From positions 41,168,001-41,232,000 of the forward strand of contig OZ024749.1 in assembly GCA_964016885.1 (NCBI GenBank): DNA of 64,000 nt. Reading direction: 5' to 3'. Within the stretch, counting starts at the first letter, position 1, and the number at the start of each line of letters is the position of its first letter. A model generated the notes under the pieces. It did not search any database and was not told where the DNA came from. It saw only the letters and a list, made by a program, of their open reading frames with translations. The stretch is from Eledone cirrhosa (lineage: Eukaryota). Positions 42,001-51,000 of this stretch are shown piece after piece. A program made the translations under genes and the position numbers.

Positions 42001-45000
42001 CAAAAGGCAGTTGATTTGGTGGAGTCATTCGAGCATTTGCTATTTGGTTTGGCTCTCTATGCTCCAAGTTCAAATCCTACTCAATTCAATTTGGCTTTAC
42101 TCCTGAGCTCAATACAATGTTGTTATTCATCATTCCTTATCATTCCCCTTTCATACATGTTCCATCCTAGCATGGGTTGGATTGATTGTTCTAATCCATC
42201 TCAGTTCTTATTAAAACTTACTGTCCTCCTAGACAGGTCAGGGGACCAAGTCTCACTGGTACATTCCAATTTTTGCAGTGCTTTCTACAGATGGATACTC
42301 TTTCTAACACCAACTTCTTTACAGAGTGTACTGGGAGTACCAGCACTATGGAGATGGACATAATTTTGACAAAACTGACAAATCCCCTCTACTCTATATT
42401 GTCTCTGTTTGATAAGCATCACATTTACAGAGTGTACTTATCAAGGCATCAGCACTAGAGAGGTTGTCATGTCCTCAACCAGATCAAAGAATCCTCTCCA
42501 CCCTACATTGTCTCTTTTCAATCTTCAACCATTTTACAGGGTATACTGGGTCTATTTTGTTGTGGCCTGCAACACAAGACAGGTTTTCATGTCCCTACAT
42601 GCCAAGAAGAGTCCCCTATTTTCTACATAATTTCCGTTTTTCAAGGCAAATATGCCCAAGAGTTTAATATTTAGGGGAGTTATGGCCAGATAGTTGAATG
42701 AGGAGAGGGTGTTAATTTGAGTATGATAGGGGAAATAGAGTTATATGCTGGTAGGGGAGGGAGTCAAACAACAGTAGTCCCATGCGGGTTGTTGGTAGAA
42801 GGGGGGCTGGGTTCTAGAGGTGTGTATATGGTGGGGGGGGGGGGGTTACAATGTGTCCTAGGAATAATAGTAATAATGTTAATAATAATAAAAAAACATC
42901 TAGACTCTATTATGTGTTCCAGCTGACAGGCTGAGGCCATGCTAGGGCACCGTCATTGAATATATTTCTTAGAATTACAAGGTTTGACAACAGTTTCATC
43001 AGTTTCACTGAATGTTCTTCACCTCACCTTTAAATTCTATTCTGTATGCTTGCTGTTTTGTTTGTTTTTGTTTTATTGTAGTTCATACACACACACATAT
43101 ACACACATATATTTGGTTCTGCTTTTTTTAGATTATAGTTATCAACCTTTTTATACACTAGATGATGATTACTATTCTACCATCCTTGGTGGACTTATAA
43201 AACCACTAGTTATAGATTTACTATTTGCTGCTGCTACACACATAGACTTCCTAGACCCATGTAATAGTACTGCTCCCACATCTAAGAGGGGGTTGCTACT
43301 GATGCATGTGCAGAAATATAAGACCACATCCAGATAAAAATGGCCCAGCTTATTGGTGGAAACCCCTTCTCAAACACGCTCAAGCCTATAGATATGTTGT
43401 CTCCTATCTGGGGAATAGTGATAAAAGGGGAAAATATTTTGGGTCATACATATATCATCATCTCATCATCTTCGTTTAACGTCCATTTTCCACGCTAGCA
43501 TGGGTTAGACGGGAGTTATCCCACTTGAGGCAAGGCTGGTCGGGTGACCGTGTCTCGCTCATATAGGACTATCTGGCAGGTTTTCTACGGCTGGATGCCC
43601 TTCCTATATGTGTATATCGACAGTCGATCAACCTTCGTCAAATCGGATGAGGAAACAATGTTTCCATTAGTCTTTCCAATTGCTAATACTATCTATCAGT
43701 CGCAAATCCAAATAACAGGAGGAACGTAAAATAAAGTGTCTTGCTCAAGGACATAACGCATCACCTGGTTCGGAAATCAAACTCAAAACCTCACGATTGA
43801 GAATCCATTTCTCTAACCAGTCAGCCTTGTTAAATGTCAAAGATAATTTGACTCTGTAAATTCAACAAACTATTGTTGAAGAGTACAAGCAATGGCCTTA
43901 GAGTACATTGTTTCTTGTATATTCTATCCTTCCATCTCAACAAATTATTTACCGTTGACCTAAGAACCTTTCCATTCAACAAGGACTTACTTTCTTTTTA
44001 GAAATTTCTATGACTTCTTATATTCCATCATAACTATTTTCCATGCACACATACATACACATATATATATGTGTGTGTTTGTATGTGTGTATATATATAT
44101 ATAATTTTAGTTATGCAACAACTCTTCTATTTTTATTTTTATTTTGCTGCCTGCTTGCAATTTTATCTATTTTTTGTTTTCTTTTCATTATAAATAGACA
44201 TATGTATGTATGTATATATATATATATATAAATGTGTATGTGTGTGTGTGTGTGTGTATATATATATATATATATATATATATATATATATGTACACACA
44301 TATACATACATTTTTTATATATATTATTAAGTTTTCAGTTTGTAGTTTTTTTTTGTTTTTTAATTTTTTTATTTCTTTATCTTTTATCTTTTGTTTTATT
44401 TCATTTTTATTATTTTTATTTAATCTATTGATTTGTTTCATTTTTATTTATTTTCATTTTTGTTTACTTTTTTTTATTTTATTATTATATATATATATAT
44501 ATTTATTTTTTATTTTTTGCGGCTTGGTTTTATTTTGTTTTGTTTTTTGTTTTTTTTCTGTCTGACTTGGTTTTATTTCGCTCGCCCTACCAGGCCTTAA
44601 TGACCATGTTTCAAATCCTCATTCAAGAAGGCTGGATTGAAGTCGTAGACGACCTCATGGAGAAAATTGACTCCATCTATGTTATCATACTTCTTTTAGT
44701 TGCTTCCTATTTTGTCCTCTTCCATCTTTTTGTCTCGTTGGTGAGTAGATTACAGACTTTTTTTGTTTTCGGTTTGTGGTTTGGATTGTAGTTTGGTTTG
44801 TTGTTGGTGTTGTTGTTATTGTTAACCAACTAATTTTGTTTGGCCCTCTGCTACCATATACCTTTTTACTACCATTCCTCATTCCTCATCTTCTCCTTCA
44901 GTCATAAAATAGATATATATATATTTATACTGTCAACTAATACTACTACTACTACTACTGCTGCTACTACTACTACTACTACTACTACTACTATATTACT

Positions 45001-48000: not shown

Positions 48001-51000
48001 GTATGTGTCTATGTATCTTTATAAGAGTCTATCTGTATGTGTCTATATATCTGTATATGAGCCTGTCTGTGTGTCTATGTATATGAGCCTGTCTGTGTGT
48101 CTATGTATATGAGCCTGTCTGTGTGTCTATGTATATGAGCCTGTCTATGTATATGAGCCTGTCTGTGTGTCTATGTATATGAGCCTGTCTGTGTGTCTAT
48201 GTATATGAGCCTGTCTGTGTGTCTATGTATATGAGCCTGTCTGTGTGTCTATGTATATGAGCCTGTCTGTGTGTCTATGTATATGAGCCTGTCTGTGTGT
48301 CTATGTATATGAGTCTGTCTGTGTGTCTATGTATATGAGCCTGTCTGTGTGTCTATGTATATGAGCCTGTCTGTGTGTCTATGTATATGAGCCTGTCTGT
48401 GTGTCTATGTATATGAGCCTGTCTGTGTGTCTATGTATATGAGTCTGTCTGTGTGTCTATGTATATGAGCCTGTCTCTGTGTCTATGTATATGAGCCTGT
48501 CTGTGTGTCTATGTATATGAGTCTGTCTGTGTGTCTATGTATATGAGTCTGTCTGTGTGTCTATGTATATGAGCCTGTCTGTGTGTCTATGTATATGAGC
48601 CTGTCTGTGTGTCTATGTATATGAGCCTGTCTGTGTGTCTATGTATATGAGCCTGTCTGTGTGTCTATGTATATGAGTCTGTCTGTGTGTCTATGTATAT
48701 GAGCGTGTCTGTGTGTCTATGTATCTTTATAAGAGTCTGTGTATGTGTATCTTTTTATGAGTCTGTCTGTGTGTTTATGTATCTTTATAAGAGTCTGTGT
48801 ATATGTGTATCTTTATATGAGTCTGTCTGTGCGTATGTGTATTTGTATGTATGTCTGCCTGTCTTTGTATCTGGACATGAGTCTGTCTGTCTGTCTATAT
48901 TTGTGTTTTGATATGTTTTTTTTTACTAATGCAATATTATTGTTATATATTTTTAATATTCATGATTAACTGCCTCCTTTTTTTACGTTTTTTTTTCTAT
49001 CTCCTTTCCAATTCCTTTCACTAATTTATCTACCTTCCTTATAATCCCAGATTTCATAATTCCTGTTTCCACAGCTATCAACTGACCTCTGATTCATATA
49101 TATATATATATTTATATATATATATATATATTATGGAATACTGTTGGCTTCTTGCTACAATACTTTCTATACCTTCATTTATATATATATATATTTGCAT
49201 ATATATATATATATTTATATATATATATATATATATATATTTACATATATTTATATATATATATATATATTTACATATATTTATATATATATATATATTT
49301 ACATATATTTATATATATATATATTTATTTATATATTTATATATATATATATTTACATATATATATATATATATTTACATATATTTATATATATATATAT
49401 ATATATATATATTTACATATATTTATATATATATATTTACATATATTTATATATATATATATATATCTATATTTACATATATATATATATATATTTACAC
49501 ACAAACACTCATACACACACAAATGTATGTATATGTGTGTGTGTGTGTAGGTAATGAAAATTAAAAATCTGCCTCTGTGTCTTGGTCATGCAAGTTACCA
49601 ACCAAAGAACACTTCTGATTGCTAACTACTTAACTTAATTAATGATTAACCCCAGTGTGTATTGGTATTTCACTCTCTGTCTCTTCCCCCCAGGCTTTCA
49701 TGTCAATGTTTCAAATCCTCACCCAAAAGGGTTGGATTGAGGTTATGCACATTACGATGTGGAAAACAGGAAAAGTAGCTCCTCTTGTTGCCATCTATTT
49801 CATATTCTACCACCTTTTTGTAACGTTGGTGAGTAATACATATGGTTTAGTCAGCTTCCTTTGGTGGAATATTATGGTCATGTGATTTTAGTTTATTACC
49901 ATTATTAGTATTATTATTTATATTTTTTTTATTTGAATTTTATTTAATTTTATTTGGTTTTTGTAACGTTGATGAGTAACACATGATTTAGTTTGCTTTC
50001 CTTGGTACAATATGCTCACGTGTTTTTAGTTTATCACCATCATAATTATTAGTATATTTATTTAAATTTAATTTTAATTTAGTTATTTTAATTTAATTTT
50101 TTTTTATGTAAATTTTATTTTATTTATTTTTATTTTGTTTAATTTTTATTTTATTCAATTTTTATTTTACTTATTTTTATTTTATTTATTTTTATTTTAT
50201 TTATTTTTATTTCATTTATTTCTTATTTTATTCAATTTTTATTTTATTCGATTTTTATTTTGTTTTGTTTCTCTTTATTTTTTAAGACACTCACATATTT
50301 AGAATATGGGGATGTGTGTTTTTCGTTTATCATTGGTATTATTATTATTTTTAATTTTTATTTAAATTTCATTTAAATTTTATTTTTATTTTATTTGGTT
50401 TTTCGTGTTTATTTTTCTACACACACACCTGTGTGTGAGTGTGTGTATATATACATAAATATATATATATATATATATATATATATATATATAATATACA
50501 TATATTTATTGGTGATTTTATTTTTATTTAGAATATGGAGATGTATGTTTGGTTTATTGTTAGTATTTTATTTGAATTTTGCTTTAATTTTATTTTTCGT
50601 GGTTATTTATTTTTTGTAGGAATGCTCACATTTGTATGAGTGTGTCAAAATTTGACACATATATATATATATATATATATATATATATGTATATATTGGT
50701 GGTTTTATTTTTATTTAAAGAGATGTGGGTTTTTATTTCTATGTTGGAAATGGCTGTATAATTTGTTAAAATTAGTTATTTTAATAAGTCAGAGGTTGCC
50801 AACCTTTTCACTATCAAAGACCCCCTTTTATTTAAATAAATTTCCCCACATACATCCTACTTACCAAGGTTTCCTTTTATTTAAATAAAATTTCAAATAT
50901 ACACCCCCCCACACTACCAAGGCTCACTTTGTATTTTAAATGAATTTTCCAACATACACTCCTTACAAAAGCCCTCTTTATTTAAGGGAATTTTTCCACA

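Follow-up and report, generated by a model that had tools for sequence, protein, structure and literature searches.

A tandem pair of repeat II pore exons in the NALCN gene of the octopod Eledone cirrhosa, likely spliced one at a time and akin to snail exons 15a/15b

Senatore et al. 2013 described the alternative NALCN exons 15a/15b in flatworms, molluscs, annelids, echinoderms and hemichordates (PMC3557258). In Lymnaea, exon a (Glu) precedes exon b (Lys), and the EKEE form is biased to the brain (PMC3557258). Mutually exclusive is the published description of the exon pair (PMC3557258, PMC4436565). Later reviews, in the parts covered, repeat the 15a/15b account without octopus or cephalopods (PMC4436565, PMC10120453), and the molluscs named in the appendix text of the original study are Biomphalaria, Aplysia and Lottia, with no cephalopod among them (PMC3557258). 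Our search of the cephalopod NALCN literature (octopus, squid), with subscription journals outside its coverage, found no paper on the pair. Here, we analyse a stretch of 64,000 nucleotides (nt) from Eledone cirrhosa (contig OZ024749.1, positions 41,168,001 to 41,232,000 of assembly GCA_964016885.1; hereafter the window), which holds the first part of a NALCN gene. We consider it highly probable that NALCN of this octopod has two tandem repeat II pore exons, that each mRNA likely includes just one of them, so that the filter is either EEEE or EKEE, and that this is the same ancient switch as snail 15a/15b.

The Eledone pair is like Lymnaea stagnalis 15a/15b in gene, in segment, in the order of E upstream and K downstream, and in the Glu residues of repeats III and IV (PMC3557258). 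Unlike in the 15a/15b numbering, the Eledone pair is coding exon 12 in our gene model; in addition, exon a has Ile at position -2, and the repeat I site of human E275 is Lys in the cephalopod sequences. The NALCN genes of Octopus sinensis, O. bimaculoides and Sepia pharaonis are direct orthologues known as database entries only, and exon b is identical in Octopus. Exons 31a/31b of myriapods and chelicerates (EEEE/EEKE) follow the same tandem E/K logic, but in repeat III, which in Eledone is single and has Glu. Vertebrate NALCN has a fixed EEKE filter, with its Lys in repeat III and without an alternative pore exon. In Lymnaea Cav3, the repeat II alternative exons 12a/12b alter Na+/Ca2+ preference, as is proposed here. 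They differ, however, in belonging to another gene and in swapping the extracellular turret and not the filter residue; the name 12a/12b is unsuitable for the NALCN pair.

The two pore exons and their gene

The gene model was built on the window and 150 kb of downstream DNA (214 kb in total; pieces L001-L003). A first-pass annotation of the window had reported two homologous phase 0-0 exons between the exons of segments IIS5 and IIS6, and had read from them a Glu/Lys switch of the repeat II filter in one gene. Both exons stand as described, with their translations. Each is bounded by AG and GTGAGT, holds a whole number of codons, and aligns to residues 543-588 of human NALCN, the repeat II pore loop. 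The two are 51% identical in protein, with 90 of 147 aligned nucleotides the same. The filter codon is Glu in exon a (GAA, 44627-44629) and Lys in exon b (AAG, 49727-49729). The remaining filter residues were read from the gene model: repeat I has Glu at codon 35126-35128, as annotated, and repeats III (L002:4973) and IV (L003:1917), which the annotation had left to be checked downstream, also have Glu, the three contexts being ASQEGW, LSLEGW and VTGEDW. Since repeats I, III and IV all carry Glu, the filter is EEEE with exon a or EKEE with exon b.

44594..44740, forward strand: alternative exon a (read as exon 15a), repeat II P1, filter, P2 and start of S6; 147 nt, phase 0-0
49694..49828, forward strand: alternative exon b (read as exon 15b), the segment matching exon a; 135 nt, phase 0-0
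38009..38140, forward strand: constitutive exon 11 (IIS5), donor common to both alternative exons; gene model, its last 30 nt forming the loose 5' end of the spliced contig described below
55674..55748, forward strand: constitutive exon 13 (rest of IIS6), shared acceptor; gene model
29753..38140, forward strand: coding exons 1-11 of NALCN, covering repeat I and the part of repeat II through S5; placed by tblastn of the O. bimaculoides protein, with exon ends refined at splice sites
62622..62695, forward strand: exon 14, the last NALCN exon inside the window, with 25 more downstream; gene model

The gene had been called NALCN, and the full model bears this out. Built by tblastn with splice-site refinement, it spans 61 kb, with 39 coding exons, canonical splice sites and no internal stop, and its 1730-residue product is 96.5% identical to O. 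bimaculoides NALCN. The frame is open with either alternative exon (1734 residues with exon a, 1730 with exon b), and the ends assigned to the IIS5 exon (38140) and the IIS6 exon (start 55674) agree with the annotation. The product is a four-repeat, full-length channel, orthologous to NALCN and not to Cav/Nav, and falls among octopod sequences in the tree. Human NALCN is the best solved-structure match for both exons (E 9e-17 for exon b and 1.1e-6 for exon a; exon b against Cav3, E 1.5e-4). NALCN is single-copy in this octopod genome. Protein searches of the 3.0-Gb genome matched only these two pore exons, the copy counts being lower bounds, and no third copy lies within the 214 kb. Nor does the same 214 kb hold a duplicate of the repeat III pore exon, which means that this gene lacks the arthropod exon 31 switch. 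At the end of exon 15 of the model (L001:344-601), about 16 residues disagree with the RefSeq protein of O. bimaculoides, possibly through a model error or an alternative splice site in the O. bimaculoides record.

Judged by exon-peptide trees, whose alignments have 45-46 columns and whose set does not include Lymnaea, the two exons are most plausibly the old 15a/15b pair, orthologous and not newly duplicated. In these trees, a single branch sets 14 lophotrochozoan b exons apart (support 99/98), and exon b of Eledone groups with the b exons of Biomphalaria, Aplysia, Lottia and Capitella, species in the appendix of PMC3557258. Masking of the filter column and omission of the long a exon of Lineus leave the b-exon branch with a support of 99/96; the a exons of cephalopods then cluster with that of the bivalve (97/92). 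The link to Lymnaea 15a/15b, already drawn in the first-pass annotation, is thus favoured by the trees as well as by the shared order and segment. One test is less favourable to this ancestry: a duplication at the base of cephalopods as a whole is rejected in the unmasked alignment (approximately unbiased test, p-AU 0.0018), but is borderline in the masked one (p-AU 0.045; 45-46 columns). That the pair arose by recent local duplication or by faulty assembly, and has nothing to do with the snail exons, might be suspected because the intron has several local tandem duplications, one of which copies the 3' end of exon b. This is hardly credible, as exons a and b differ at 49% of residues and each has its own counterpart in other cephalopods and in bivalves. 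A duplication confined to the Eledone lineage, with the two window exons placed together, is rejected (p-AU 0.0001), and in a cuttlefish-like record both exons are assigned to one 321,897-nt contig (P0003, P0015).

Splicing of the pair and the retention of exon a

Splicing into exon a is observed in Eledone cirrhosa itself. Four runs of one study contain exon a, none of them recorded as RNA, and three of the four were aligned to 44545-44800. In run X4, one 681-nt contig aligns to 44594-44696, its match beginning precisely at the acceptor of exon a, and its 30-letter loose end is 38111-38140, the end of exon 11. The 38140->44594 junction is shown once, at low depth. Runs X1 and X2, from a different sample of the same study, cross exon a unspliced and without letter differences, and may themselves be the source of the window's DNA.

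Relatives supply both forms. Nine of the 13 Logan proteins in the Sepia pharaonis NALCN cluster span the site, six with exon a only (21 contigs), three with exon b only (8 contigs) and none with both. Six spanning proteins are full-length, on contigs of about 6.5 kb; as the gene spans 61 kb here, we infer that these contigs are transcripts. Octopus sinensis RefSeq NALCN has isoforms X1 and X3 with E and X2 with K. Single forms are present in other entries, with K in O. bimaculoides XP_014778996.1 and E in Sepia pharaonis CAE1170754.1 and both Argonauta models. The expectation that automated annotation usually keeps only one of these exons is too narrow, since the O. sinensis record lists both isoforms and several models contain both exons. 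The finding itself is unsurprising, with the switch already in print and RefSeq listing both isoforms of a close relative; our data add one more cephalopod, for which there is now a complete gene model and one observed junction.

The two exons are likely spliced one at a time in each mRNA. The first-pass annotation had held that they must be mutually exclusive. This has gained transcript-based support, but the sequence does not force it: with both exons in phase 0-0, an mRNA that includes both or neither keeps its frame, and the 4,953 nt between them impose no steric block to joint inclusion. Several observations tell against single inclusion or limit the support for it. Only one of the four predicted junctions was seen here, in one contig (depth 4.95, ending at 44696) from a run of unrecorded library type. 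The other three proposed junctions did not appear in the run contigs, which were aligned at the exon a region only, and the X4 contig has no cover over 44697-44740 and is uninformative on the junction from exon a to exon 13. Seven database models contain both exons (P0001, P0006, P0007, P0008, P0014, P0154, P0161), and one Sepia model, P0126, fuses the first part of exon a to a complete exon b. The absence of double inclusion in nine spanning proteins is not a rate, as the contigs may stem from few independent studies, and because assemblers drop rare forms, strict exclusion remains inferred. We read the both-exon models as probable prediction artefacts. Two Logan proteins, P0133 and P0134, leave the NALCN frame directly after exon a or b; like P0126, they may be artefacts or minor splice forms.

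These points bear on a looser scheme, in which double inclusion or skipping would be common and would turn the gene down by yielding in-frame, probably dead channels. Phase 0-0 exons would pass such products without a filter by nonsense-mediated decay, the spacing sets no steric block, no pairing element rises above shuffled controls (see below), and models with both exons exist. We nevertheless regard this scheme as highly improbable, because each of the nine spanning Logan proteins carries exactly one exon and the published descriptions call the exons mutually exclusive.

Exon a differs from exon b in its rate of change. Exon b is 100% identical in protein to that of O. bimaculoides, whereas exon a is 84% identical to Octopus (8 of 49 residues differ) in a protein that is otherwise 96-97% identical. 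By these identities, exon a is evolving faster than exon b. In addition, exon a has Ile at the last P1 position (-2, 44621-44623), where Thr, Ser or Cys is highly conserved (PMC7672056). Among 189 motif matches, found in 184 of 205 stored proteins by a pattern too strict for divergent a exons (those of gastropods, with Cys, among them), this residue is Thr in 174, Ala in six and Ile in nine. The nine Ile matches are all cuttlefish-like a exons, and the six Ala matches are K exons, the named ones bivalve. Since the Ile is common to cuttlefish-like sequences and is not found in Octopus or Argonauta, its distribution calls for one reversion or two gains.

The divergence and the unusual Ile would both fit an exon a that is decaying or non-conducting, with exon b as the sole working pore. 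However, exon a is spliced in E. cirrhosa (one contig), is commoner than exon b among cuttlefish-like contigs, and has splice sites that score mid-range for the gene. It has an open reading frame, conserved to 82% from octopods to cuttlefish, and the flanking intron appears conserved too. That cuttlefish have this Ile as well suggests that it has long been retained, and the position is also variable among a exons of gastropods (Cys). A decaying or non-conducting exon a is therefore improbable. The charge contrast between the exons is kept in other cephalopods: net charge is -5 in exon a and +2 in exon b of Eledone, so that the swap shifts it by 7, and is -3 to -5 in the other a exons and +2 in the b exons.

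Candidate control elements in the flanking introns

Since neither reading frame nor spacing enforces exclusion, RNA-binding proteins probably determine it. Three intronic features flank the exons.

44276..44593, forward strand: T-rich (U-rich in RNA) tract and AG-free zone (246 nt) preceding exon a, a candidate element for splicing control; T content 68%, gene median 38%
44561..44593, forward strand: intronic acceptor region of exon a with branch-point-like CTGAC at 44562-44566; branch motif scan, apparent conservation in cuttlefish-like sequences
50026..50400, forward strand: T-rich tract downstream of exon b, candidate splicing-control element; second of the two tracts with at least 65% T in 214 kb

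The tracts are unusual for the gene. Of 1,207 intervals of 250 nt across it, five reach 65% T on the sense strand and none reaches 65% A, and the whole 214 kb holds just two tracts of at least 65% T, one before exon a (44276-44600) and one after exon b (50026-50400), besides one A tract far downstream. The AG-free zone of exon a is exceeded only by that of exon 20. A distant branch point for exon a was considered and set aside as unneeded, given the branch-like CTGAC at -32. The upstream T tract and the acceptor region appear conserved in cuttlefish-like sequences, a comparison made on translations with no constitutive intron as control: open reading frames (ORFs) that read through the intron have 24-32% Phe upstream of exon a, and in P0003, 8 of the last 11 in-frame intronic codons before exon a give the residue of the window. 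It should be weighed against the putative regulatory role of the T tracts that octopus introns are rich in simple repeats.

Factors that bind U-rich RNA tend to repress an exon from upstream and to enhance it from downstream. Because of this tendency, one factor could favour exon b over exon a: it would repress exon a through the tract before it and promote exon b through the tract after it. A single U-rich-binding factor acting from both tracts is the simplest splicing model, which we offer as a tentative and somewhat doubtful hypothesis. In any case, the two flanking tracts are concrete targets for asking how exon choice is controlled.

Other kinds of control element left no clear trace. A search for docking/selector RNA pairing found 5 complementary 11-mers, where shuffled sequences averaged 3.4 (sd 2.2), and five of six splice-flank probes pair no better than shuffles. 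The best duplex of the probe downstream of exon b scores -39.3 against -36.1 for the best of 5 shuffles, too few controls to count. Rfam has no match in the 17.5-kb intron region, where ORFs of at least 90 residues other than the known exons look, by eye, like simple repeats or repeat elements. A metagenome scan for related loci had no hit among 597 pattern matches. The introns also carry several repeats. A 138-nt tandem duplication (49815-50101) takes in the final 14 nt of exon b together with its donor, and the donor of the second copy is unusable because its GT reads AT (49972). Between the exons, at 47625-48898, a 26-nt minisatellite of 26 copies (95% matches) forms part of a larger array rich in TG. 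A dispersed repeat of 130-150 nt, by appearance like a short interspersed nuclear element, has several intron copies (41665-42106, 45636-45839, 53315-54211).

Possible consequences for the pore

Studies on human NALCN suggest what the switch could do. Ions enter above repeat II (PMC7672056). At the switched position, the E554A mutation lowers the current gain on divalent removal from 15-fold to 1.5-fold and so almost abolishes divalent block, K1115A has no such effect, and the channel shows no divalent conduction (PMC7182417). By analogy, the EKEE form would be a Na+ leak weakly blocked by divalents, and the EEEE form, with its much more acidic mouth, would bind Ca2+ tightly and be either strongly blocked or able to pass some Ca2+. 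The switch might then tune the size and the calcium sensitivity of the resting leak by tissue. We consider this functional model, with a weakly blocked EKEE leak, a Ca2+-binding EEEE form and tissue tuning, reasonably probable. Two reports temper it: the snail isoforms yielded no separable current (PMC3557258), and the selectivity of EEEE NALCN is stated to be uncharacterised (10.1101/2025.04.04.647097). Accordingly, of the first-pass description of EEEE as calcium-channel-like, the filter itself is present, but calcium selectivity is drawn from analogy. The Eledone exons provide material for the question of what EEEE NALCN conducts, which has come within reach of experiment since human NALCN can be co-expressed with its three subunits (UNC79, UNC80, FAM155).

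The splicing and functional models could be combined into a single-factor calcium-block toggle, in which a divalent-resistant EKEE leak would alternate with an acidic, Ile-bearing EEEE pore mostly shut by Ca2+, acting as calcium sensor or leak. This combination is rather unlikely; if true, it would offer the first cis-regulatory point of access to a switch that was described in 2013.

RNA editing offers, in principle, a second route to an altered filter in coleoids, since the filter codon AAG is editable by adenosine-to-inosine change. Recoding of this codon (49727-49729) to Glu or Arg was not seen in the Logan K-form proteins, three of three of which keep Lys. NALCN was not found in one supplement file each of PMC8382921 and PMC9068888, whose large editing tables lie outside that coverage and may bear on editing.

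The outer mouth of repeat I also differs from that of human NALCN, where E275 is a cation attractant (PMC7672056). The equivalent residue in Eledone is Lys (AAA, 35111-35113), and it is not majority-edited, as transcript-like proteins keep Lys. This Lys occurs in all 15 matched proteins of the cephalopod cluster, and the other 71 proteins have Gln, Glu or Val.

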